DNA of 38,837 nucleotides. Source: Candidatus Woesebacteria bacterium. GTDB taxonomy: Bacteria > Patescibacteriota > Saccharimonadia > Saccharimonadales > EFPC-124. A program made the position numbers and the translations under genes. Where the stretch lies: positions 88,556 to 127,392 of the forward strand of contig JASFQB010000005.1 of assembly GCA_050115675.1 (NCBI GenBank), given 5' to 3'. Each line of letters begins with the position of its first letter. Within the stretch, counting starts at the first letter, position 1. Under the pieces are notes generated by a model that saw only the letters and a list, made by a program, of their open reading frames with translations, was not told where the DNA came from and ran no database searches. Of this stretch, positions 212 through 37,615 are shown piece after piece.

Positions 212-1978
212 ATGGCGAAAAAGATGGTTATCGCTGATATGATCACCGTAGGCGAGCTGGCGGCTCAGCTTGATTTGCCAGTAACGAAATTAATTGGAGA
301 GCTGTTTAAGAATGGCGTAATGGCCACGGTTAACCAGCGAATTGATTTTGAAACTGCGCAGATTATTGTTGAAGAGCTTGGTTTAGATGTTGATCTTGAA
401 AAGAAAGTTGGCACAGAAGCTGCACCAGCTACTAAAAGCGAGCGAGTATTAAGCGAAAAAGCAGCGTCTAGACCTCCTATTGTTGCTGTTATGGGACATG
501 TTGACCACGGAAAGACTTCACTTTTGGACGCCGTTTTGGATACAAAAGTCGTAAGTGGTGAAGCAGGCGGGATTACGCAGCATATTGCTGCTTATCAGAC
601 CAAATATAATGGTCGTCCAATAACTTTACTAGATACTCCTGGCCACGAGGCGTTCAGCGCGCTGCGTCAGCACGGCGCAGCGTTGACTGACGTTGTTATT
701 ATAGTTATTGCTGCAGATGATGGCGTTAAGCCGCAAACTGTAGAGGCAATTAAATTTGCGCAACAGGCAAATGCAAAAATTGTTGTTGCAATAAACAAGG
801 TAGATAAACCAGACGCCGATGTTAACCGTGTTAAAACTCAGTTGGCCACAGATTACAACTTAGTTCCAGAAGAATGGGGTGGCAATACGGTCATGGTTGA
901 GGTTTCGGCTAAGACTAAACACAATTTAGACAAGCTGCTTGAGCTTGTTTTGCTTGTTTCTGACCTTGAAGATTTGCGTGCAGAGCTGGATGTTCCGGCA
1001 GAGGGCTTGGTGATTGAGTCGCATATGGAGCAAGGCCGGGGCGCTGTTGTATCTCTTTTGGTGGAGCACGGAAATCTGAAGCCAGGAAGTTATATCGTGG
1101 CTGGTAGCTCCCATGGTAGAGTTAGAACATTGTTAGATTACGCGGGCAGGCCGCTTAAGCAGGCTGGTCCTTCTACTCCAGCTACTGTTACTGGATTTAA
1201 AGAGCTTCCTCAGTTTGGTGATAGGTTTACTGTGCATGCTAATGAAAAGGCAGCTAGGCGCGCAACAGAAGAGCACAAGCAGGCTCATAAACAAGATGTC
1301 ACAACGTCAAATATTTCTAGTACAGAACTATTAAGTATGATTGATAGGCGCAAAGAAAAGCAGTTGGTTAATATTATTGTTCGGGCTGATGTGCAGGGTT
1401 CGTTGACCTCTGTGATTGATAGTTTGCGGTTGCTAGAAAATGATGAGCTTGCTTTGCGAATTATTAGCTCAGGTGTTGGAAACATCTCTGAAAACGACGT
1501 TCGTTTGGCAGAAACCAGCGATGCTGTAATTTATGGCTTTAATGTGCAAATGCCGCCAATTGTCAAGCGCCATGCTGTGGCGGCTAAAGTTCCTGTAAGG
1601 ATCTTTACTATTATTTACGAGTTAATAGATGACGCCAAGACAATGCTAGAGGAATTGCTTTCGCCTGATATTGTAGAGGCTGAGATTGGTAAGCTGGTGG
1701 TTAAGGGCGTGTTTAGGATTGCCAAAGAGGATGTCATTTGTGGTGGTCAAGTCACAAAAGGCAAAATTGAGGCAGGTTTGCTTGCTCGTGTTGTTCGTGG
1801 CAAAGAACAGATTGCCGAAGTTGAAGTAAAGCTAGTCCAGCGAGAAAAACAAGAAGCCAAAGAGGTATTTGAAGGCGAAATGTGTGGCTTGCAACTTAAA
1901 ACAAAAGGACGCCTAAACGTTGAAGAGGGCGATAAGTTAGAATTCTTTAGGCGTGATTTAGTTAAGCGAAAACTATAA
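212..1978 (+). CDS. infB: Translation initiation factor IF-2 (short form)
   Basis: GHVDHGKT, GGITQHI, DTPGHEAF and NKVD GTPase motifs; one IF2_N-like segment at the N-terminus; SD-like GAAAGGACGG upstream. Confidence 0.98.
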   Translation: MAKKMVIADMITVGELAAQLDLPVTKLIGELFKNGVMATVNQRIDFETAQIIVEELGLDVDLEKKVGTEAAPATKSERVLSEKAASRPPIVAVMGHVDHGKTSLLDAVLDTKVVSGEAGGITQHIAAYQTKYNGRPITLLDTPGHEAFSALRQHGAALTDVVIIVIAADDGVKPQTVEAIKFAQQANAKIVVAINKVDKPDADVNRVKTQLATDYNLVPEEWGGNTVMVEVSAKTKHNLDKLLELVLLVSDLEDLRAELDVPAEGLVIESHMEQGRGAVVSLLVEHGNLKPGSYIVAGSSHGRVRTLLDYAGRPLKQAGPSTPATVTGFKELPQFGDRFTVHANEKAARRATEEHKQAHKQDVTTSNISSTELLSMIDRRKEKQLVNIIVRADVQGSLTSVIDSLRLLENDELALRIISSGVGNISENDVRLAETSDAVIYGFNVQMPPIVKRHAVAAKVPVRIFTIIYELIDDAKTMLEELLSPDIVEAEIGKLVVKGVFRIAKEDVICGGQVTKGKIEAGLLARVVRGKEQIAEVEVKLVQREKQEAKEVFEGEMCGLQLKTKGRLNVEEGDKLEFFRRDLVKRKL

Positions 1979-2032
1979 CTATTTTGCCAGCATGCTGTAT
2001 AATTAAAATCACAATAGGGTGAGAAATACAAA

Positions 2033-2335
2033 ATGCAGCAAAGTGACGCAGCGAACAAATTTGTAGATAAAATTTTAGAGCAAAAGGGTGTTGATGGTGT
2101 TGATGAAAATATCGTAAAACAAATGCGCGAGGATTTGTTGTCTAGCTTAGATGCTATGATAAATAAGGCGATTATTGATTCGCTATCGGCGGAGCAACGG
2201 ATTAAACTTGAGCATTTAATTGACACCAACCAGATTGACAAAGTGCAGTCATATGTACAGAGTGTGGGAGTAAACGTTTCTGGAATTGTAGCCAGGTGTA
2301 TGATGCAAATCCAAAGAGATTATTTGGGGGTTTAA
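2033..2335 (+). CDS. Small helical protein, DUF5663-like
   Basis: 100 aa, amphipathic-helical pattern similar to 6713..7021. TATAAT at 1998-2003 upstream; the stop is immediately followed by the next ATG. Family call is recognition only. Confidence 0.55.
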   Translation: MQQSDAANKFVDKILEQKGVDGVDENIVKQMREDLLSSLDAMINKAIIDSLSAEQRIKLEHLIDTNQIDKVQSYVQSVGVNVSGIVARCMMQIQRDYLGV

Positions 2336-5300
2336 ATGACTAAGCCGCCAATGGGTCCAAGCCCGTCTAATTCAGAACTACTACCACATGGCGAGTATCT
2401 ACATGAGGGGCGCCTTAAAATTGTTATTGCAGGACTTGATAAAAACGTGCGGGCCCATGCAATGGAGGCGGCTAATCAAAGGCTTTCTGATAAACTGGGC
2501 GAGAATGGTTTTAAGGGGTTTTTGAATAAAATTTGGCACGGTGGTTTTGCGCGTGAGCATTATTTGCTAAAGTATGCAAAAGAGGCAAAAGCAGATATTG
2601 TTGAGTCTGATAATTTATTTGAAAACGAAGGCTTAAGCGCGGAAGAGTACAAAGTTGCAACAACTTTACGCTTTGCCCATGAATATGACGGTCTTGTCCA
2701 TGAAGAAGTTGGTGAGCATAGACACGTAGTTGATCGAAATGAAGACGGTTCTGTAGATGTTGAGGGGTACGAGCTTAAGCATCACCTTTTTGATCTTGTG
2801 AGTCAATATGCGGCTGGTGAATTTGATGGTCCAACCCCTGACGATACTGAACGAAACTTTAACGAAGAGGCGAGTCGTCTTATAACTGAGCTTATTGAGC
2901 GAGGGGTGATTTCTAAGGACCATGTGGGTGAGGCCAGGGTTAGGCTAGATAATTTGTATCAAGTTAGTCAGAATGTGCGTGTAATGGTTGATCATGGAGT
3001 TGGTCTTGATGAGATCGCTCACAATACAGACATCGTGCTTGGAGAGGCTAAGGTGGGGGCAAGAACCGAAGCTGATACTACTCGAGCCGAGAGGATGGTC
3101 GAGAAGCTGTCAGGCAAAGCTTGGATAAATGAGGGTACAGTTATACCTGCCGTTACGATTGCTATGAGTACGGCCAATTTTGCTGCAAAGGCTGGGGCAA
3201 GTGCAGCCGTTGCAGCTGTTGCTGGTATTGCTGTTCCCGGAGCATTGGCCGGTGTTTGGGCGGGAATGCGCGAGTCGGCTAGGTCAAAAAGAGAACTTAC
3301 TGAGCTTAAGAGGGGTATTGAAACGGGAAAAATAGAAAACCCAGAGTCTAGTATTATGCGTTCGGCAGAATCCCTTATAGACCAGTTAGGCGTTCTTTAC
3401 GATGACAATGGTGAGCTTAGGATAAGCGACGAAGATAGTATGTACGGAGTGTTGGCGACGATTGCTGAATGCGATTCTCGTATTTATCTTACAAATGTTA
3501 GCGAGCCGTTAATATCTGATGCCTCTGAAATGGATCGTTATGATCTTTATGTTGCTTTGGCAAAGGCAAAGAGTGATGTGGCTGACTTTATTCAGATGTC
3601 AAGTGATTCTCAACTTAGACAATTGGGCTATGATGACGTTGCGATTGCAGAACTTAGGCAGAGTGATGATTTAGTAGATGCAATTTTGGCTCCGTATATT
3701 GATGCCGAGGATGGTGTTTTAAGTAAAGAGATTACAAGTAATGCGCGCTTAGAGCGCAAAGCTCATCTGAAAAGAGTGGGGCTTGCGGCTCTCCAGGGGT
3801 CCGCGTTAGGAATATTTGCTGGTGGTGTCTCGCAAGAGCTTTACTCTTTGATGAACGATGAGATTCAGGGTGTTGTCGAGGGGAGATTAAATGCTAACTC
3901 TGATGCCAGGCAGACATTTTATCAGAACTTTATGGGTCGTGGCGAGGGCTCACATGAGGCTTTTGCGGATTTAACTAACTCTAATCGTACTGAATCTATT
4001 GGTTCTAGAGTGAATATCCAATTGCCGGAGGGGTTCAGTTTTGTTCGAGAGGGAGATGTGGCAACAGTAACGGGTCTAGATGGTTTTCGTGTTGAAAATC
4101 TATCCTTAACTGAAGATGGTCATTTTACTCCTGCTGCCGAACAAGCACTTGCTTCAAAAGGACTAAACCTAATAAGGTTCGAAGATATTTCGCCTGTAAA
4201 TGTCGAAAAAGAAACCGTAGTTTCGGCCAGAGAGTTTTTAGACAATCATCAAGATAATGTAACAAAAGTAACGCGCGATTTTTGGTACACAAATGCCATA
4301 GAAGGGCGTGCTGATGGTGCAGAATTGGGTATTAGCCAGGTGCGCGTAGATGCTGACGGCAATTATGTCGTTGATTTATCTGGCATGGGCGAAAAATCTT
4401 TTACATCCAATGGTCAAGAAGTTGACTGGCGGCAAGCGGCAAGCGAAGGTAAGCTATCTTTGGTTCTAAGTGCATCCAGCGGGAGTCAGTCGGAAGCTAT
4501 TATGCTAGACATTGATCCGTCGGGTCCTGTTGTTGTTGACAAGGATAGCTTTGCGGCTTCGATGTTTAGCCAACATGATGGCGAAGCAGCGATTAAGGGT
4601 AAGTTTTTGGAAGTGGTTGAGGTTGCTGGTCAAGATGAAGATGGAGTTACGCATATACGGCCTTTGGCTACTGCCGTTGGCGAGGGAGCTGACGTTTTTC
4701 AGGATAAGCTGCAAGTTGTTGAAAACGTGCAGTCTACTTTGTATAGTGCGGAGTATACTGCCCCTGAAGGCAATGCATCGCAAGTTGCTATTCCGTATGT
4801 TTTGCCTGTTTCTATGACGGGCTGGCAGCCGAGTCTAGGTAGGCGCAAGGAGTCTGGTCAGCCACTGACTACCGAAAACTCTAGAACTGAGCCTTACGAT
4901 AACGAGGCTTATAAATCTATGCCTAATGGCTTTGATAATGAGAATTATTTTGGGACTGAGTTTGATAACTTTGAAGACGATGACTTTGATAACGAAGCTC
5001 GGGCAGAGGCAGAGGCAAAAGTAGAAACAAAAACGCCCGAGGCAAACCACCAGTCTGTAAATGTTCCTGAGCTGGTTGTAGAGTTGCCTCCAGATAAATT
5101 CCAGCCTGCTGAGAATTTTAGGCAGCAATGGGAGTTTGAGATGTCTCCTACTTTGGAAGAAAATCCCGATGCGCAATTAGATATTAACGAAGAACTAGAT
5201 CGTTACATAGCCGACCAAGTAATAAGACATGGTCGTGAGTATGCAAATAATATTGAGAGTCAAAATAATACAATTGGCCTAAGTGAGCTCATTACTTCTG

Positions 5301-6709
5301 ATACTGAAGCAATTGTCTGCGCAAAGATCGAGGTGAGTGACAGCGGCATTCCTATTCGCGACATTGTATCTGCATATGCAAGGCAGGGCGAGGAGGCTGT
5401 GAGTAAGTCAGTATTTTTGATTGATATTGCATGGTCTGCTGATGTTAGCTCCGATGAGGATGCTGCAGCGTTGTTTTCTAGGGTTAATTCTGAGTTTGTG
5501 CGTGCGCGAGCTGAGTTTCCAAGCCTTAAAGTTACCGCTTATGCTAGGGACTGGCATGAGCGTGGCTCAATGACAGAGAATGAACACGCAAAAGAACGCT
5601 ACGACGTGGCTGCATTTGCAGCAGAAGCAGCTATAAGTGCTGGAAAACAGAACTCACTTGGTGATCTGTTGATAGTCTCAAACGACGCCAATGCTACAAG
5701 CATACCTGCAGACTACCTAGGCTCTTATATTAAGGAATTTGAAGCAAATCCAGAAACAGACGTCTTTACGGGAGCTTATGTAAGACAGGGAGCTGCCACT
5801 CCGGACTATCCTGGCTATGATGTAGTTATGTCGTTTTTGTCTAATTTAGAGGTTGAGCATCAGCAAGACAATCCGGCAATGACTGGATACGTTATACAAA
5901 ATGGATCAAACATGGCGTTTAGAATGTCAGCATATGCCGCAGTAGGTGGTTGTGCGGGCGAGGCTGTTAGGGCAGACGACGAGATCTGCCAAAGGGTAGT
6001 TAACGCTCGTCAGGGGTCAATTGGCGGTAGGCCTGTTGTGCAGCACGTTGCGGATGCGCAAGTTACCGCTACGCTTGAAACTGATGAATCGTTAGAGCAG
6101 TATAGGCGTGGCAATTGGGTTGCAGAGCCAGTATACGCTGGTGAGCAAAATGGTGCAATGATCAACGCAGAAGACCCGCAAAGCGATCTTAGCGGCATAG
6201 TTGACCGTATTGAGCTCAACGTAAACTCGTACATTGCTAACATACCTAGCAAGCCTGAAATTGTCGAGGATGCCTTGGTTAAGACGTTTGGCCCAATAAG
6301 TGGAAGTAAGGCGGCCTTTGTAATGCGTTGGAGTAGGGATTATACTAAGGCGCAATTTAATTTAACAAATATTGGTCGTCAGATGTTGTTGCAAAAGTTG
6401 ACTAATCCGAACACCGAGGAACCTGCAGAGTTGCCCACAGTGGAGTCTGTTGCAAATGGTGGTGTCGAAATAGAAAATAGCGAGATTACTCCTAGTGTAC
6501 CAAGCGTCAAGCCTAAAATTGGCGATATTTTGGTGTCTTCCTCTGGCATGCGTCTTAAGATAGATGGCACCGATGGTCGTGGCATGACTTGGTTTAAGTC
6601 GCTTATGCCAGACAATATTACGCCTTATCCTACACAGCCCCAAATTCGAGTTAACGAGCGTAAATTATCAGACATGTTAGTTTCGGGCGAATATAAAGTT
6701 TTGCGATAA
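2336..6709 (+). CDS. Giant multidomain protein: Gly/Ala-rich hydrophobic segments, beta-rich middle, acidic linker, degenerate GT2/GT-A-like domain
   Basis: Uninterrupted 1457-aa ORF. Hydrophobic segments at about 3140-3268 and 3776-3829. GT-A-like motifs LLIVSNDANATSIPADYL and GSNMAFRMSAYAAVGG. Confidence 0.7.
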   Translation: MTKPPMGPSPSNSELLPHGEYLHEGRLKIVIAGLDKNVRAHAMEAANQRLSDKLGENGFKGFLNKIWHGGFAREHYLLKYAKEAKADIVESDNLFENEGLSAEEYKVATTLRFAHEYDGLVHEEVGEHRHVVDRNEDGSVDVEGYELKHHLFDLVSQYAAGEFDGPTPDDTERNFNEEASRLITELIERGVISKDHVGEARVRLDNLYQVSQNVRVMVDHGVGLDEIAHNTDIVLGEAKVGARTEADTTRAERMVEKLSGKAWINEGTVIPAVTIAMSTANFAAKAGASAAVAAVAGIAVPGALAGVWAGMRESARSKRELTELKRGIETGKIENPESSIMRSAESLIDQLGVLYDDNGELRISDEDSMYGVLATIAECDSRIYLTNVSEPLISDASEMDRYDLYVALAKAKSDVADFIQMSSDSQLRQLGYDDVAIAELRQSDDLVDAILAPYIDAEDGVLSKEITSNARLERKAHLKRVGLAALQGSALGIFAGGVSQELYSLMNDEIQGVVEGRLNANSDARQTFYQNFMGRGEGSHEAFADLTNSNRTESIGSRVNIQLPEGFSFVREGDVATVTGLDGFRVENLSLTEDGHFTPAAEQALASKGLNLIRFEDISPVNVEKETVVSAREFLDNHQDNVTKVTRDFWYTNAIEGRADGAELGISQVRVDADGNYVVDLSGMGEKSFTSNGQEVDWRQAASEGKLSLVLSASSGSQSEAIMLDIDPSGPVVVDKDSFAASMFSQHDGEAAIKGKFLEVVEVAGQDEDGVTHIRPLATAVGEGADVFQDKLQVVENVQSTLYSAEYTAPEGNASQVAIPYVLPVSMTGWQPSLGRRKESGQPLTTENSRTEPYDNEAYKSMPNGFDNENYFGTEFDNFEDDDFDNEARAEAEAKVETKTPEANHQSVNVPELVVELPPDKFQPAENFRQQWEFEMSPTLEENPDAQLDINEELDRYIADQVIRHGREYANNIESQNNTIGLSELITSDTEAIVCAKIEVSDSGIPIRDIVSAYARQGEEAVSKSVFLIDIAWSADVSSDEDAAALFSRVNSEFVRARAEFPSLKVTAYARDWHERGSMTENEHAKERYDVAAFAAEAAISAGKQNSLGDLLIVSNDANATSIPADYLGSYIKEFEANPETDVFTGAYVRQGAATPDYPGYDVVMSFLSNLEVEHQQDNPAMTGYVIQNGSNMAFRMSAYAAVGGCAGEAVRADDEICQRVVNARQGSIGGRPVVQHVADAQVTATLETDESLEQYRRGNWVAEPVYAGEQNGAMINAEDPQSDLSGIVDRIELNVNSYIANIPSKPEIVEDALVKTFGPISGSKAAFVMRWSRDYTKAQFNLTNIGRQMLLQKLTNPNTEEPAELPTVESVANGGVEIENSEITPSVPSVKPKIGDILVSSSGMRLKIDGTDGRGMTWFKSLMPDNITPYPTQPQIRVNERKLSDMLVSGEYKVLR

Positions 6710-6712
6710 TGT

Positions 6713-7021
6713 ATGTTTCAAATAGATGATATATTTTTGCTAGAAGTTGGGCTAGAGTCTTTGTCAAATGATGAAAAAGAGGGGCTGTTGCTTTGTGTTG
6801 AAGAAGAGCTGCAAGTTAGAATCGGGGCGTTATTATCAAGTAATATGGATGACGAGCAGCTTGCTCACTTTGAGTATCTGGTGGCTCAAAATCAGCAGCA
6901 ACTTGCCATAGAGTGGTTGAATAGTAACTGTTCAGATTACAAACAGATTGTTGCTCATGAGGTTGATAAACTAAAAGACGAAATTAAAAATAATAAAGAC
7001 GTAATTTTAGGTGGAGGCTAG
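6713..7021 (+). CDS. DUF5663-like small acidic helical protein
   Basis: MFQIDDIFLLEVGLESLSNDEKEGLL..VEEELQVRIGALLS..MDDEQLAHFE...WL...DYKQIVAHEV resembles the CPR DUF5663 family pattern. Its stop overlaps the fmt stop (CTAG at 7018-7021). Confidence 0.7.
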   Translation: MFQIDDIFLLEVGLESLSNDEKEGLLLCVEEELQVRIGALLSSNMDDEQLAHFEYLVAQNQQQLAIEWLNSNCSDYKQIVAHEVDKLKDEIKNNKDVILGGG

Positions 7022-7920
7022 CGATCTTTTTTGTAGCCGCGCAAAAAAGCCTCTGAGTCCATATTGCGACCGCTTGGAGCAGTTACTTCTTGTATTTCGA
7101 TAAAACCTTGCCTGCATGGCATAACTAAGTGTCCGTCAAACTCGTTTTTGGCTTGCCTAGCTTTTACGATAGTAATATCGTGACCAAAAATATTAGTGCG
7201 TGATTTTGGCCATTCGGCGTATGCTCTGATTTTTCTTTCAATAAGCTGAGCTGGCTCTTGCCAGTTGACTATGCCGTCTTGTTTCTTGATCTGTTTGGTA
7301 AAGCTGGCTTTTGTTTCATCTTGTGGTGTAGGGGTCGCTTTATTCTGGAGTATGTCTGGCAAAACTTTTAGCAACAGTTCGCCTCCTATGTTTAGTAGGT
7401 GCTCTGAGAGCTCTTGCTTTGTCTCTTTTTGATTTAGCTTGATTTCTTTTTGCGTATAAATTGGACCCGCGTCCATGGCTTTGACTAGGCTCATAATTGT
7501 TACCCCCGTTGTGGCCTTGCCATCAATAATGGCTTGCTCAATTGGAGTTGAGCCGCGATATTCTGGCAGGAGAGAGGGGTGTATATTTAAAATTCCATGC
7601 GGAAAGATATCGATAATTGATTGAGGTATGATCTTCCCGTAGGCGACAAGTATCCCGGCTGCTGCATCGTATGACCGCAGCTGATCGTAAATTTCGGCTG
7701 GCTTTTCTGGTAGAAGAACTGGTATGCCGTGCCGTTTTGCAACTTCGGCAATTTCAAGCTTGCGAGCTTTGCGCGAGGTGCCTTTTTCGTAATTTGCTGC
7801 AACTGCAGCTATATTGTAACCGTTGTCTATTAGGCGCTGTAGCGTCGGTGCGCCGTTTGGCAAAAAACCCGTGCTTAAGCGTTCGTTACCAAAGAATATC
7901 AGACTTGATGATTTCGTCAT
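7018..7920 (-). CDS. fmt: Methionyl-tRNA formyltransferase
   Basis: VAYGKII, NIHPSLLPEYRGSTPI and MDAGPI motifs; directly downstream of def. Confidence 0.96.
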   Translation of the reverse strand: MTKSSSLIFFGNERLSTGFLPNGAPTLQRLIDNGYNIAAVAANYEKGTSRKARKLEIAEVAKRHGIPVLLPEKPAEIYDQLRSYDAAAGILVAYGKIIPQSIIDIFPHGILNIHPSLLPEYRGSTPIEQAIIDGKATTGVTIMSLVKAMDAGPIYTQKEIKLNQKETKQELSEHLLNIGGELLLKVLPDILQNKATPTPQDETKASFTKQIKKQDGIVNWQEPAQLIERKIRAYAEWPKSRTNIFGHDITIVKARQAKNEFDGHLVMPCRQGFIEIQEVTAPSGRNMDSEAFLRGYKKDR

Positions 7921-17947: not shown

Positions 17948-18409
17948 ATGAAGTGTCCACACTGCCAACAAGCCGAAACTAAGGTAATTGAATCTCGAGA
18001 TGTTGCGAATGGGGAGAGCATTCGCAGGCGGCGAGAATGCTTAGTTTGCCAATATCGTTTTACTACATACGAAAGATTGGAAAGACCTAGCATAACTGTT
18101 ATCAAAAAGGATGGCACTCGGCAAATGTATGATCGTGCAAAACTTGTAACAGGTTTACAAAAAGCGTGTGAGAAGACAAAAATAACAGGGGCAAAGTTTG
18201 AAGAATTGGTAGCGCAAGTTGAAAAAGATATCTACGATTGTGGTGATGCGGAGATATGTTCTGAAAGAGTAGGCTCAATTATAATGGGTGTTCTTGCGCG
18301 CACTGACCAGATTGCATATGTGCGATTTGCCAGTGTTTACCGAAATTTTACAGACTTAGAAAGTTTAGAAAAAGAGCTTTCAAGATTAAAAATGCGCTGT
18401 ATTCCTTAG
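17948..18409 (+). CDS. nrdR: Transcriptional repressor NrdR
   Basis: MKCPHC..KVIESR..IRRRRECLVC..RFTTYE Zn ribbon, ATP cone, AYVRFASVYR. Confidence 0.98.
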   Translation: MKCPHCQQAETKVIESRDVANGESIRRRRECLVCQYRFTTYERLERPSITVIKKDGTRQMYDRAKLVTGLQKACEKTKITGAKFEELVAQVEKDIYDCGDAEICSERVGSIIMGVLARTDQIAYVRFASVYRNFTDLESLEKELSRLKMRCIP

Positions 18410-18524
18410 CTAGTACTAAAAATAAAACAAAAAATCACGACTGTTTTGATTTGATTTGCCATGTGCTGGAGGGTAGATGGCAAGCTTATCTTAGGCTTTT
18501 GTGGTAAACAATTAAGGAGGGTAT

Positions 18525-21296
18525 GTGGCCATGGCGCAAAATACGGCAGCGCTTAAATTAAAGCGGCATTTTACAGAGGAAGATACGCATCCATACGACA
18601 TGCTGAGGTGGGTGACCACGGACTCAAAAATTACCAATCCAGGCACAGGAGAAACTGTTTTTGAGCAAAAACAGGTAAGCTTTCCGGATACCTGGAGTCA
18701 GAACGCAATAAACATTGTGGCTCAAAAGTATTTTTATGGCACCCCTGGTACGAATCAGCGGGAGTCGTCGTTGAAGCACCTTATTAACAGAGTAGCTGAT
18801 ACGATAACTACGCATGGTTTAGAGCAGGGTTATTTTATTGACGAAGGCGAATCTAAAATTTTTAGCGATGAGCTTAAGTACGTTTTAGCTACACAGCGCG
18901 CAGCATTTAACTCGCCCGTTTGGTTTAATATTGGTGCCCCTGATCGTGCACAGCAGGCTAGTGCGTGCTTTATCTTGAAGGTAGAGGATAGCTTGCCTTC
19001 TATTTTAAACTGGTACCGCGAAGAGGGAATGATTTTTAAGGGAGGCTCTGGTGCTGGCTTAAACATAAGTGAGATCCGATCATCCTACGAGCGGCTAAGT
19101 GGTAGTGGAGGAAAGGCTTCTGGTCCAGTTAGCTTTATGCGTGGCGCAGACGCATCCGCCGGTACTATTGCCAGTGGCGGCAAGACCCGTCGTGCCGCAA
19201 AAATGGTTATTTTAAACATTGATCACCCTGATGTAGAGAAGTTTATTTGGTGTAAGGCTCGCGAAGAGCGCAAGTCTCGCGTGCTAAAAGAAGCAGGCTT
19301 TGACATGGGGCTTAATGGTGAGGATGCGATTTCTATTCAGTACCAAAATGCTAACAACTCCGTACGCGTAACAGATGACTTTATGCGCGCAGTAGAAAGC
19401 GACGATGATTGGGGCTTAGTAGGCGTAAAAGACAAAAAAGTCTACAAAACAACGCGCGCTAAAGATTTGTTTCGTCAAATTGCCGAAGCTGCATGGGAAT
19501 GCGCTGATCCAGGTATGCAGTTTGACACAACTGTTAATGACTGGAATACAACTCCAAAAGCTGGTAAAATTAATGGCTCAAACCCCTGTTCTGAGTACAT
19601 GCACCTGGATAACACTGCATGTAACCTGGCCAGTTTAAACCTGCTTAAATTCTTAAATGACGATGGAAGTTTTGATTTTGAAGGCTTTAAGCATGTAACC
19701 CAAATTATATTTTTGTCGCAAGAAATACTGGTTGGTTATTCTAGCTATCCTACAGAGTCGATTGATAAGGGTGCGCGTGCGTACCGCGAACTAGGAATTG
19801 GTTATGCCAACTTGGGCGCAATGCTAATGGCTCGCGGTTTGCCGTACGACAGCGACGAAGGTCGTGCGTTGGCCGCTGCTGTAACTGCTTTGCTAACTGG
19901 ATATTCGTATGCAACAAGCGCCAAGATTGCAAAACGTGTGGGCTCGTTTGCGGGATATCACAAAGACAAAGAGGGTGCAATTCGCGTACTTAAAAAACAT
20001 CGCAATGCTGTTGATGACATAAACTCAAAATATGTTGAGAAAGACTTGCTAAAAGCTGTGTCCGAGGTTTGGAACGAGGCTGTAGAGCTTGCCGAAATGT
20101 ACGGAGTGCGCAACGCCCAGGCATCTGTTTTGGCACCCACGGGCACAATTGGTTTAATGATGGACTGCGACACTACCGGTGTTGAGCCTGATTTTGCGTT
20201 GATTAAGCACAAAAACTTAGTTGGCGGTGGCTCTATGGCGATTGTTAACCAAACGGTTTCGCGTGCGCTTAAAACTTTGGATTACAACAAAGAACATAGT
20301 AAAGAAATTGTTGATTACATTCACGAGCACAACACAATTGTGGGCGCCCCGCATCTTAAAGATGAGCACCTTGGCGTGTTTGCCTGTGCAGTTGGTCAAA
20401 ATTCAATTCATTATTTGGGCCATGTTAAGATGATGTCTGCGGTCCAGCCGTTTATATCTGGTGCAATTAGCAAAACTGTCAACATGCCACAAGAAGCAAG
20501 CGTAGAAGATGTTGAACAGCTTCATATGGATGCATGGAAGATGGGAATTAAGGCTATTGCAATTTATCGCGACGGTAGTAAAGTGGGACAGCCTTTAAGT
20601 AGTAAAAAGCAAAAAGAGGCAGCCAAAAAAGATGCACCTCAACAAGAGCCGGTGGTAAGTTTGCCGGTAGTAGTAAAAGGCGCAGTTAAGCGGGAGTTGC
20701 CACGAATTAGAAACAGTCGGACTTTTGAATTCCACGTTAGCGACTTAAAGGGTTATGTAACGGTTGGCGAATACGAAGACGGTACTCCTGGCGAAGTGTT
20801 CTTTAGGATCTCAAAACAAGGATCAACCTTGTCTGGAATAATGGATAGTTTGGCAATTAGCGTTAGCCATGGCTTGCAATACGGTGTACCTCTAAAGAGT
20901 TACGCCAAGGCAATGATTAATACAAGTTATGCGCCGGCTGGCATTACGGATGATCCAGAAATCCGAACGGCTTCAAGCATCACAGACTATATCTTTCGTC
21001 GTTTAGCGCTAGAGTACCTAAATTTTGACGACAGGCTAGAGTTGGGGTTGGCATCTTTTGATGATCTTGAGGCAGAAACTCAAGCAAATCAAATAAGTTT
21101 ACTTGAGCAGCCGGTCGTTGGTCAAAAAAACACACCAATTTTAGAGCAAAAAACTGTAGAAGTTAAAATGGCAACGGCGAAGATCGAAGTTAGTGCTTCG
21201 GATTCACCATTGTGCAGTAATTGCGGAAACATCACAAAACCGTCTGGTAGTTGTCATGTTTGCACAAGTTGTGGTTCTACTACAGGTTGCAGCTAA
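18525..21296 (+). CDS. nrdJ: Class II (adenosylcobalamin-dependent) ribonucleotide reductase
   Basis: FNSPVWFN, SACFI, NPCSEY, APTGTI, GAISKTVN, YRDGSK and a C-terminal Cys-rich tail. SD AAGGAGG at 18514-20; start is GTG 18525 or ATG 18531. Confidence 0.96.
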   Translation: MAMAQNTAALKLKRHFTEEDTHPYDMLRWVTTDSKITNPGTGETVFEQKQVSFPDTWSQNAINIVAQKYFYGTPGTNQRESSLKHLINRVADTITTHGLEQGYFIDEGESKIFSDELKYVLATQRAAFNSPVWFNIGAPDRAQQASACFILKVEDSLPSILNWYREEGMIFKGGSGAGLNISEIRSSYERLSGSGGKASGPVSFMRGADASAGTIASGGKTRRAAKMVILNIDHPDVEKFIWCKAREERKSRVLKEAGFDMGLNGEDAISIQYQNANNSVRVTDDFMRAVESDDDWGLVGVKDKKVYKTTRAKDLFRQIAEAAWECADPGMQFDTTVNDWNTTPKAGKINGSNPCSEYMHLDNTACNLASLNLLKFLNDDGSFDFEGFKHVTQIIFLSQEILVGYSSYPTESIDKGARAYRELGIGYANLGAMLMARGLPYDSDEGRALAAAVTALLTGYSYATSAKIAKRVGSFAGYHKDKEGAIRVLKKHRNAVDDINSKYVEKDLLKAVSEVWNEAVELAEMYGVRNAQASVLAPTGTIGLMMDCDTTGVEPDFALIKHKNLVGGGSMAIVNQTVSRALKTLDYNKEHSKEIVDYIHEHNTIVGAPHLKDEHLGVFACAVGQNSIHYLGHVKMMSAVQPFISGAISKTVNMPQEASVEDVEQLHMDAWKMGIKAIAIYRDGSKVGQPLSSKKQKEAAKKDAPQQEPVVSLPVVVKGAVKRELPRIRNSRTFEFHVSDLKGYVTVGEYEDGTPGEVFFRISKQGSTLSGIMDSLAISVSHGLQYGVPLKSYAKAMINTSYAPAGITDDPEIRTASSITDYIFRRLALEYLNFDDRLELGLASFDDLEAETQANQISLLEQPVVGQKNTPILEQKTVEVKMATAKIEVSASDSPLCSNCGNITKPSGSCHVCTSCGSTTGCS

Positions 21297-21315
21297 AACG
21301 AAAAAAGTTTTGCGC

Positions 21316-21340
21316 AAAAGCGGGCCTTTGGCCCGTTTTT
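21316..21340 (+). terminator. Intrinsic terminator after nrdJ
   Basis: AAAA-GCGGGCC-TTT-GGCCCGT-TTTT. Confidence 0.85.
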
Positions 21341-21427
21341 GTATAAGTTTGGAGTTGGAGCTGCGTTATTGAGTGCAGCGCTCTGGTAGCTTGTTTAATC
21401 GATCAAGCATTTGTTATATTTAAAGTA

Positions 21428-21694
21428 ATGAGAACGTTACTATTTTACAGGCCAAATTCTGAGCATTCTACGGCGGTAGAGGACTACTTGCGAGAGTTTA
21501 CGGCGCGCACAAATAAGGCGCTGCCAACTGTTGATGTTGACACAAAAGGTGGAATTGAAATGTGTCAGCTTTACGGAATTGTTAGTTACCCAACAATCAT
21601 TGCCATAGACGACAAAGGCCAAGAGTTGCAGCGCTGGGACGGTCCAATGTTGCCTCAGATTAGCGAAGTTAGTTATTATTTACCGCAAGATTAG
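21428..21694 (+). CDS. Thioredoxin-like fold protein lacking CxxC
   Basis: VDVDT...LYGIVSYPTIIAIDDKGQELQRW.G is the Trx C-terminal pattern with the cis-Pro. The active-site position reads FYRPNSEHS. Confidence 0.7.
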   Translation: MRTLLFYRPNSEHSTAVEDYLREFTARTNKALPTVDVDTKGGIEMCQLYGIVSYPTIIAIDDKGQELQRWDGPMLPQISEVSYYLPQD

Positions 21695-35805: not shown

Positions 35806-36381
35806 CTATTTTTTACGTTCAGGTAGGCTTATACCCAAAGATATAGCAGTATGAGTATCATCGCCAATTAAGTACATACCGTTGCTACAAGATATCTTAC
35901 TTCTGTCTGTGTTGACATGTAAGCTCACTCCCAACTCAATATCCCCCTCCGCTAAATCACCATACGTACTAGGTTTGCGTGCTCCAAAGTTAAGAATAGA
36001 GTCGTAATAGTAATAGCTTAAATCATCTTGGCGCTCTAGATTATACTCATTATCCGCTGCCACTTTTTTAACAATCTCTATAGCCTGATCTTTACCGACG
36101 TTGAGTTGGTAGTAACCGGAGTAGTACGGAGTGCGTGTGTTCAAAGAACTCGTCCCATTACTCTCATTGTCACAAACTTTTGTAGCTCCAGCTGCAAGCA
36201 ATGATTTTTCTATGGGTGTTGCTGCGTCTTTGGCAGGATTGGAGATGAAAGGGTTATTGAATTGTAAAGAAAAAACAAAGACCGCCATGCAAACAACGGA
36301 TACTGTAATCGCAAGCGACAGAGAAACGACACTTATTGGTGTTTTTAAACTAAACTTTTTTAAGGATTGATCTTTTTTCAT
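35806..36381 (-). CDS. Array paralog B, membrane-anchored exported protein
   Basis: Basic N-terminus, TM helix, NPF..N.A...A.PIEKSL..AGA.KVC core, second Cys, C-terminal SLPERKK. Confidence 0.8.
   Translation of the reverse strand: MKKDQSLKKFSLKTPISVVSLSLAITVSVVCMAVFVFSLQFNNPFISNPAKDAATPIEKSLLAAGATKVCDNESNGTSSLNTRTPYYSGYYQLNVGKDQAIEIVKKVAADNEYNLERQDDLSYYYYDSILNFGARKPSTYGDLAEGDIELGVSLHVNTDRSKISCSNGMYLIGDDTHTAISLGISLPERKK
36172..36243. repeat. 72-bp direct repeat shared by paralogs B and D (copy 2 at 37406-37477)
   Basis: Manual alignment gives 72/72 identical, with further similarity on both flanks. Confidence 0.9.
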
Positions 36382-36413
36382 ATTATCTAAGAGTAGAAGG
36401 AGGTGATTTGAGG

Positions 36414-36983
36414 TTATTTTTTACGTTCGGGTAGGCTTACAGACAGCCCGAAAGTAGTACTGCCATCCTCCAGCCCGTCCGCATTAGTTTGGGCGCAATT
36501 TCCATTAGAGGCGGATACGTCATAATGTGTAAGTAAGTTAATGTTAAAAGCTATCCCTATGTCTCCGTTGTCAAGATTGGAGTATTCACTAGTCTTGCTT
36601 GCGCCAGCGTAGGAATAATAATCGTTTTCTTGCGTAAAGGCATCAAGGATATATCCATTATCCTTGGCTGCGGTGGATACTGTCTCTTGAGTTTCTTCCA
36701 CTGTGCCGTCAATTTTAAACGTTGCACTATACCAAGGTATTCTATTTGTAGCTTCGTATCCAGTGGCTCCTCTGCTGCAAACCTTCACAGCCCCAGCTTC
36801 TATTAAGCTTTTTTCTATTGGCTTAGCAACTTCCTCGGCTCTGTTAGATACAAAAGGATTATTATACTGTAAAAATAATGACACAAAAGGAGTAATCACA
36901 ATAACAGCAAGAACACACGTAGTAATTACTACAGCTCTACCTATTGAGGTTTTTAAAATTGGTGTGGTTAGTGGGTTTTTCAT
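36414..36983 (-). CDS. Array paralog C, membrane-anchored exported protein
   Basis: Same architecture; core NRAEEVAKPIEKSLIEAGAVKVC; C-terminal SLPERKK. Confidence 0.8.
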   Translation of the reverse strand: MKNPLTTPILKTSIGRAVVITTCVLAVIVITPFVSLFLQYNNPFVSNRAEEVAKPIEKSLIEAGAVKVCSRGATGYEATNRIPWYSATFKIDGTVEETQETVSTAAKDNGYILDAFTQENDYYSYAGASKTSEYSNLDNGDIGIAFNINLLTHYDVSASNGNCAQTNADGLEDGSTTFGLSVSLPERKK

Positions 36984-37039
36984 AGTGTCTAGGTTTAAGA
37001 GGGAGTGCTTTGGTTAGGGCTAAATTTGATTTGATAGAA

Positions 37040-37615
37040 TTACTTTCTGGGAGGAAACGACAAAGTAAGTCTAACGCCAGTATGATTAGTATCCCCAACT
37101 AGATTAATTGGACTACCTCCACTAAATGGACATGGCAAGTTCTTAGCCTCAGTGTTCGTATATAAATCTATAGACAATCTTTCGTCACCTTCTTTGAGAT
37201 CTTTATCTATACTCGATCGCGTGCCATCGTAGCTAAATACAGATTCGTAAAGCTGCGCACCAAGACTTAAGCTAAAACCACTATCCTTTGTAGCTTTCGT
37301 TATTTCGCTATAGACTTGGTCTTTACCGACATTGAATTGGTAGTAACCTGAGTAATACGGTGTATGCGTATTATCCAAAGGATTCGTCCCATTACTCTCA
37401 CTACTACAAACTTTTGTAGCTCCAGCTGCAAGCAATGATTTTTCTATGGGTGTTGCTGCGTCTTTGGCAGGATTGGAAATGAAAGGATTATCACTAGACA
37501 CGGCAAATACAAATCCCCAATACACCAACCAACCCACAACAACAGGCACTAATACTATTAATAGTATCTTGAACGAACACTTTAAAATATTTTGTATAGG
37601 CTTACTTTTTATCAT
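37040..37615 (-). CDS. Array paralog D, membrane-anchored exported protein
   Basis: Same architecture; core NPAKDAATPIEKSLLAAGATKVC; C-terminal SFPPRK. Confidence 0.8.
   Translation of the reverse strand: MIKSKPIQNILKCSFKILLIVLVPVVVGWLVYWGFVFAVSSDNPFISNPAKDAATPIEKSLLAAGATKVCSSESNGTNPLDNTHTPYYSGYYQFNVGKDQVYSEITKATKDSGFSLSLGAQLYESVFSYDGTRSSIDKDLKEGDERLSIDLYTNTEAKNLPCPFSGGSPINLVGDTNHTGVRLTLSFPPRK

Follow-up and report, generated by a model that had tools for sequence, protein, structure and literature searches.

The interval between infB and fmt in a Candidatus Woesebacteria genome of the order Saccharimonadales carries a gene pair that recurs across the phylum Patescibacteria. The pair lies in the window analyzed here, which comprises 38,837 nucleotides (nt) of contig JASFQB010000005.1 (GCA_050115675.1; all coordinates given are positions in this window) from a 1.18 Mb genome of 99.65% completeness. 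It consists of a small gene of a DUF5663 (PF18908) subfamily and the gene of a 1457 amino acid (aa) protein, referred to here as the giant, in which a conserved N-terminal region (the carrier) precedes an exchangeable C-terminal part (the payload). The two genes form a conserved module and represent a real, widespread and apparently undescribed two-gene system. We tentatively suggest that the DUF5663 protein is the cognate chaperone of the giant, and that the giant is an exported polymorphic carrier that would insert in the host membrane and show a swappable enzyme to the host cytoplasm.

A gene of the upstream DUF5663 type is found no more than 1.5 kb upstream of the giant in 42 of the 46 loci scored across the phylum (one duplicate was dropped), at a distance of 70 nt or less in 37 of them, and three of the four loci where it is missing are cut by a contig end. 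Locus L159 stays under the score cut, yet the small gene is present there 24 nt upstream. The association is also seen in 20 of the 24 loci that were outside profile construction. At E<=1e-9, members of the subfamily occur in 21 of the 22 giant-bearing genomes among 401 genomes of the phylum, as opposed to 15 of the 379 others; no p-value is attached to this linkage because related genomes are not independent. The small gene precedes giants with GT-A, GT9, kinase/PP2C and unidentified C-termini alike, and thus tracks the carrier, not the payload. The linkage between DUF5663 genes and the giant family anticipated in an earlier note on this DNA, made from its letters alone, is therefore borne out for the upstream gene. 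Two giant modules in tandem, each with its upstream DUF5663 gene and ending one in a glycosyltransferase (GT) and the other in a non-GT tail, occupy the infB interval at L039:4825-13910.

Assignment of the upstream protein to DUF5663 holds at the level of the subfamily. With 14.4 bits, the protein itself stays below the gathering cut-off of 23.7 bits. PF18908 is matched at E<=0.05 by 20 of 22 members of the subfamily (best 1.4e-9), and the database neighbors of one member in the ESM Atlas are DUF5663 clusters. The downstream protein matches the family outright (47.5 vs 23.7 bits, E 2.7e-12). The two small proteins of the window, described at first as mutually similar, have no BLAST similarity to each other (E 0.094), and their likeness is recovered only between the upstream and core family profiles, which are homologous (HHalign 97.6%, E 3.9e-12). 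They are the only DUF5663 matches of the genome, where three candidates were scored.

The downstream gene proved to be of a different nature. Its profile matches 290 of 301 Saccharimonadales genomes (a tally that includes one genome flagged unpublished, on which no other result rests), it occupies the infB-fmt interval also where this is otherwise empty (L110, L113, L114), and it follows the giant in only 3 of the 46 loci. DUF5663 thus splits into a near-universal, single-copy core gene of Saccharimonadales, which is incidental to the giant, and paralogs linked to partners. The arrangement in which two DUF5663 chaperones flank the giant as a sandwich, as originally conceived, is rejected on these grounds; since the core gene is present without any insert, the sandwich of the window is a two-gene module inserted before it. 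In some lineages about 40 aa are inserted in the core protein, and in others its C-terminus is drawn out into a long extension (L036, L039, L101, L113, L114; L167, L171).

The tight coupling reported for the three plus-strand open reading frames (ORFs) is confirmed by their coordinates, with spacings of 0 nt (2335/2336) and 3 nt (6709/6713). As fmt is on the opposite strand, it is convergent and not co-transcribed with them. The TATAAT sequence noted ahead of the module is present, with no -35 partner in the promoter scan, and is indistinguishable from chance, the number of promoter-like matches in the region being close to that of shuffled sequences (13 vs 9.6 +/- 2.9). Nothing in the GC content points to recent transfer.

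The giant belongs to an unannotated family with a shared front end of about 800 aa and variable C-termini, in agreement with the prediction of a conserved N-terminus. Searched with a profile built on residues 20-830, the family amounts to 1,422 clusters at 50% identity, of which 977 are matched at E<=1e-30. Within the order, the giant profile matches 33 of 301 genomes (24 through the N-terminal part, 9 through the GT part only); a search for related loci in a collection of genome contigs returned only four. No match to the carrier was obtained in Pfam, NCBIfam, PDB-sequence or ESM Atlas searches. The N-terminus is not signal-like in any of 166 homologs, which upholds the proposed lack of a signal peptide, and the two Gly/Ala-rich hydrophobic segments of the window protein span amino acids 280-312 (nt 3173-3271) and 481-499 (nt 3776-3832). 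In three genomes the giant is split near its N-terminus (L048:450-5587, L049:1-3320, L052:3609-8415), once across an assembly gap. A third small helical family is encoded just downstream of 12 of the 46 giants (L036, L037, L038, L039, L040, L042-L044, L046-L048, L052), once on the opposite strand, and has no consistent Pfam match. Its sole homolog in this genome, a 179-aa protein convergent with groEL (G000:C3:144670-144900), does not adjoin the giant, so the family was left out of the window module.

In contrast to the carrier, the C-terminal part is exchanged between homologs. The same GT-like domain is found in 134 of 166 and is absent from 32, some of these being truncated. Pfam searches of 27 of these 32 and of 8 long-tailed homologs recovered GT9 in four, an added Ser/Thr kinase in three and DUF362 in one, and an NCBIfam scan added one more kinase. 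In other lineages, L155 combines GT, kinase and PP2C domains and L159 ends in GT9. HEXXH motifs read from the sequences of L153 and L154, and HPD-like motifs from those of L039 and L051, have no Pfam match and presumably mark zincins and J-domains, respectively. The GT-A-like domain suggested for the window protein is supported only through relatives (7 of 14 match PF13641, and a broader GT profile hits PDB entry 6yv7 at E 0.0079, a single weak entry), while a narrower profile matches nothing in PDB, and for the giant of the window neither Pfam nor NCBIfam gives a match, GT families included. A single-sequence fold of residues 886-1457 has a predicted local distance difference test score (pLDDT) of 35.9, at which the fold-search matches, with template-modeling scores of about 0.2, are meaningless. 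The beta-rich region and the short C-terminal beta domain described in the earlier note are thus predicted by sequence pattern.

The GT of the window is degenerate. It keeps 15 of 24 conserved residues, against a family median of 23, and reads NDAN where 86 of 125 members have the DxD-type motif NDAD; its two closest relatives are degenerate as well. The domain is probably inactive, in which case a carrier or binding role would be what is retained. This bears on the alternative that the giant is an ordinary membrane-anchored cell-envelope glycosyltransferase or adhesin whose small neighbors are incidental. The prevalence of the GT2-like domain in the family would suit such a role, as would the occurrence of related GTs as stand-alone proteins with neither carrier nor nearby DUF5663 gene (7 loci, L026-L032) and the incidental position of the downstream gene. 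The upstream gene is not incidental, being present in 42 of 46 loci; moreover 32 of 166 homologs have no GT-A domain, GT9 or kinases replace or supplement it in some, and the GT domain decays in the window while the carrier is conserved, all of which makes this explanation improbable. The stand-alone GT proteins measure about 430-550 aa and are split by a stop in 2 of the 7 loci.

The corresponding interval of Southlakia epibionticum contains, in order, infB, SEML1_0161 (2,304 nt, hypothetical), SEML1_0162 (weak DUF5663), SEML1_0163 (DUF5663) and fmt (PMC10633639). In transposon insertion sequencing (Tn-seq), as listed in Table S1 of that work, SEML1_0161 is scored GD/ES/ES, its 99 insertions in the input falling to 0 after passage, and SEML1_0162 and SEML1_0163 are scored GD/ES/ES and NE/GD/GD; SEML1_0161 and its DUF5663 neighbor SEML1_0162 are thus essential on the host (PMC10633639). 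Together with tight gene coupling and polymorphic C-termini, the essentiality of SEML1_0162 would be expected if DUF5663 were an immunity protein or inhibitor that neutralizes a toxic partner in the producer, in the manner of polymorphic toxin systems. We give this interpretation little weight. Conserved N-termini with exchanged C-terminal enzymes are indeed found, as in polymorphic effectors, and a payload-specific immunity gene is not: the same small subfamily accompanies unrelated payloads and payload-less forms, whereas immunity proteins follow the payload. Also, SEML1_0161 is itself essential, unlike a dispensable toxin. In L195, two DUF5663 copies of equal length and profile scores lie each before one of two identical 420-aa carriers, of which one leads into the GT family of the giant and its twin into a metallophosphoesterase (repeat collapse or mis-assembly may play a part), so that two matching copies serve two different payloads. 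Besides the two identical carriers, the L195:4652-17598 array holds four DUF5663-like genes, a third hairpin protein and a GT2-TPR gene.

If DUF5663 is a cognate chaperone, it would bind the Gly/Ala-rich hydrophobic segments of the giant and keep its partner soluble. The partner could then leave the cell by a signal-independent route, for which the Patescibacteria type IV secretion system (T4SS) is the only candidate machine found. Its hydrophobic segments would insert in the host membrane, and the payload would act on host molecules using nucleoside-diphosphate (NDP) sugars or ATP. In favor of this reading are the gene linkage, the Gly/Ala-rich segments in proteins with no signal-like N-terminus, payloads dependent on substrates of the cytoplasm, and the essentiality of SEML1_0161 and SEML1_0162 during growth on the host. 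Such a mode of work would resemble that of Eag-bound transmembrane domain (TMD) effectors, outside the families of the type III, VI and VII secretion systems (T3SS, T6SS and T7SS). No FHIPEP (SctV/FlhA) match, as a T3SS marker, no VipB/TssC, as a T6SS marker, and no WXG100 match, as a T7SS marker, were found in this genome, nor were PAAR or Eag matches in the three proteins or an LXG match in the giant. The likeness to type III and type VII systems from which the chaperone idea arose is therefore only an analogy.

Several known systems share parts of this design. Like polymorphic toxin systems, the module has a conserved N-terminal carrier, swappable C-terminal enzymes and tandem arrays (L039, L195), and it differs from them in that its small gene goes with the carrier and not with the payload, unlike an immunity gene. 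Type III translocators with their chaperones and the Inc proteins of Chlamydia have a long hydrophobic hairpin and no signal peptide. The giant shares with them the lack of a signal peptide, a probable hairpin behind a predicted helical region and a small acidic partner; in contrast, FHIPEP and sequence matches are missing and an enzyme is fused at the C-terminus. Eag chaperones and prePAAR TMD effectors of T6SS offer a small cognate chaperone beside a protein with no signal peptide, N-terminal TMDs and a C-terminal enzyme (PMC7773334); here, PAAR, Eag and TssC/VipB are not found, the payloads are GTs, kinases and phosphatases, and the producer is a monoderm epibiont. LXG/WXG100 effectors of T7SS also place a helical gene of about 100 aa beside a polymorphic large protein (PMC13622651), differing from the module in that no WXG100 occurs in the genome, the dedicated partner is one and not two, and the hydrophobic segments lie in the carrier. 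An array of "effectors" in the T4SS locus of Saccharibacteria has likewise been proposed as host-directed in the same organisms, yet its members are small, carry signal peptides, lie inside the T4SS locus and are now read as VirB2-like pilins (PMC7427843, 10.1101/2022.03.25.485537, PMC12592800, PMC12857230). The giant is unrelated to them in size, location and architecture.

Several points weigh against host delivery, the foremost of which concerns topology. In the family, a net charge of about +4 precedes the last hydrophobic segment (483-503), and by the positive-inside rule the middle domain would lie outside whichever membrane holds the giant, a charge layout that would suit the own membrane of the epibiont equally well. 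The payload would come back inside only if a short Pro-rich motif crossed the membrane. This motif is a run of uncharged residues (median 9 in 130 sequences) immediately followed by at least two Lys/Arg in 75%, and is unsupported as a normal transmembrane helix, being too short and having too little hydrophobicity. GT, kinase and phosphatase payloads need cytoplasmic substrates (NDP-sugars or ATP), which leaves re-entry of the chain at the motif, processing there, or translocation of the C-terminus.

A giant residing in the epibiont membrane as a polytopic, receptor-like protein, its N-terminus inside, its middle domain exposed outside to sense or bind the surface of the host and its enzyme in the cytoplasm, with DUF5663 as insertion chaperone or cytoplasmic partner, is accordingly the main alternative, if a doubtful one, and owes its weight chiefly to the topology of the payload. 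The charge asymmetry would place the N-terminus inside and the middle domain outside, no export signal would be necessary, and kinase, phosphatase and GT payloads would suit signaling or glycosylation of the cell's own envelope. In several other DUF5663 partners a further hydrophobic segment precedes the C-terminal part, and a sortase-like domain lies between the segments of one. Less easily accommodated is the composition of the segments in the giant family, which are unusually Gly/Ala-rich (28%, 52% and 39%) and Leu/Ile/Val/Phe-poor compared with the ordinary hydrophobic windows of the genome (20% Gly/Ala). Also, patchy distribution (24/301 genomes of the order, 22/401 of the phylum), the exchange of unrelated partners at a single hot spot and payload swapping resemble host-interaction genes, and to our knowledge ordinary membrane proteins are rarely matched one-to-one by a small partner gene. 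A sortase-like domain (PF04203, E 1.7e-7) is found near the last hydrophobic segment of a DUF5663 partner at L200:4654-8388.

In favor of the chaperone reading, and with exceptions, the pairing extends to extra DUF5663 copies in genomes that lack the giant. In 38 genomes of the order, chosen for at least two DUF5663 matches, 27 regions were read, which together with 9 partners from the infB-fmt survey yielded 33 co-oriented neighbors; not counted are the core copy at L162, the extra copies next to the core gene at L167 and L171, which have no partner, and L188, L097, L101 and L105, which run into contig ends. An acidic N-terminus free of hydrophobic segments is found in 31 of the 33 partners vs 77 of 411 large ORFs of this genome, and in combination with a late Gly/Ala-rich hydrophobic stretch in 21 of 33 vs 2 of 411, figures tempered by a filter that was set after the partners had been seen and by kin that are not independent. 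The window giant does not itself satisfy the acidity criterion. Beyond Saccharimonadales, a protein of 706-2143 aa with similar segments lies next to the subfamily gene in 13 of 13 further genomes. No Pfam match was found in a scan of 34 such partner proteins, and no homology to the giant for two partners by HHalign or for 33 by profile, apart from weak matches in L193 and L194, so that the common architecture may be analogy or remote homology. Exceptions include DUF5663 copies with no large partner (G562 at L204, L179, L167, L171), a giant with no partner gene (L158, the one true miss among the 46 loci) and the third DUF5663 gene of S. epibionticum, SEML1_0221, which is dispensable and flanked by small genes (PMC10633639). 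SEML1_0161, for its part, is a counterpart of the giant by its infB-fmt position alone, and essentiality in an obligate epibiont is no proof of host targeting, polarity being possible.

Resemblance of the subfamily to chaperone domains is weak and not significant, a Trigger_C match being found in 3 of 22 members and one to trigger factor 251-310 at E 0.069. The LTXXQ family includes the chaperone Spy. For SEML1_0163, the listing in Table S2 of PMC10633639 gives structural neighbors named for trigger factor C together with an LTXXQ-family assignment. A VirB4-like ATPase is encoded in this genome and in 17 of 18 giant-bearing genomes of other lineages, a co-occurrence that does not discriminate because genes of this type are found widely across the phylum (PMC12102498); it would permit, and does not indicate, export of the giant by a T4SS. 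In the loci read, the giant is never beside a T4SS locus.

The features of the module and its borders are collected in Table 1.

Table 1. Features of the infB-fmt interval in the window.
Feature	Position	Strand	Basis
infB, left border of the variable interval	212..1978	+	Translation recognized from sequence; conserved synteny
TATAAT, possible -10 element of the module	1998..2003	+	Sequence only; absent from promoter-scan list
Upstream gene of DUF5663 subfamily, 100 aa; giant's dedicated partner and putative chaperone	2033..2335	+	PF18908 matches in 20/22 subfamily members; 42/46 loci
Giant carrier-plus-payload protein, 1457 aa	2336..6709	+	ORF and family profile
Conserved N-terminal carrier region, residues 20-520, predicted helical by sequence pattern	2393..3895	+	Profile coverage in homologs; no Pfam/PDB match
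Long hydrophobic stretch, likely hairpin, residues 262-312; second half 52% Gly/Ala in family	3119..3271	+	Hydropathy, family-wide
Further hydrophobic segment, residues 481-503, 39% Gly/Ala in family; strongly basic patch before	3776..3844	+	Hydropathy, family-wide
Conserved middle domain, residues 545-815, beta-rich by sequence pattern	3968..4780	+	Homolog profile coverage
Conserved Pro-rich uncharged motif, then basic residues; end of conserved carrier	4781..4840	+	Family alignment
Acidic low-complexity linker, not conserved	4841..5107	+	Sequence
GT2-like (GT-A) payload domain, degenerate in window copy	5108..6415	+	Family matches PF13641/PF13632/PF00535; PDB 6yv7
Position of family DxD-type motif; NDAN in window copy	5681..5692	+	NDAD in 86/125 members
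Short C-terminal module, closest relatives only; one motif look-alike in L155	6491..6706	+	Sequence comparison
Core DUF5663 gene of Saccharimonadales, 102 aa; adjoins fmt, not giant-specific	6713..7021	+	PF18908 E 2.7e-12; 290/301 genomes
fmt, convergent right border of the variable interval	7018..7920	-	Translation recognized from sequence; conserved synteny

Other gene arrangements were also recorded. Proteins of 460-620 aa with a single C-terminal hydrophobic segment lie beside DUF5663 in L162, L173, L178 and L181, in three cases with infB on one side and the core copy on the other. At a second recurrent site (L168, L176, L177, L183, L185), a partner and a DUF5663 paralog are followed by a conserved gene of about 430-455 aa. 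Elsewhere in the window, the minus strand at 35806-37615 carries a tandem of three ORFs, 189-191 aa long and free of Pfam matches, which may be a paralog array. The plus strand at 17948-21694 encodes NrdR, a class II ribonucleotide reductase that includes a TSCPD domain, and a small thioredoxin-like protein.

No description of the DUF5663-giant module was found in the open-access literature, subscription papers and bioRxiv supplements lying outside the search, and the term DUF5663 appears in no main text of the open-access literature searched, with no function on record. Nor is the module described in the available portions of 10.1101/2022.03.25.485537, PMC12592800, PMC13622651, PMC12419801, PMC7427843, PMC12857230 and PMC12102498. 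The T4SS of Patescibacteria is essential, and no substrate is named for it in the accessible text of PMC10633639, PMC12102498 and PMC12857230. For the action of these bacteria on their hosts, the module offers a concrete candidate class, with a simple marker in the form of an extra DUF5663 gene beside a large, signal-less protein with a hydrophobic hairpin. SEML1_0161 and SEML1_0162, both essential and not discussed in the portion of PMC10633639 examined, make a testable pair in a genetically tractable strain. Even if the giant stays in the membrane of the epibiont, this would be a first role for DUF5663 and a large family (1,422 clusters) of modular membrane enzymes. A more far-reaching and rather unlikely extension is that there is a phylum-wide class of host-delivered membrane proteins, each with its DUF5663 chaperone gene, which would be the missing secretion substrates of the epibionts and would install glycosyltransferases, kinases, phosphatases or proteases in the host membrane. 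In that event, DUF5663 paralogs would serve as a genomic flag for the host-manipulation arsenal of these epibionts.

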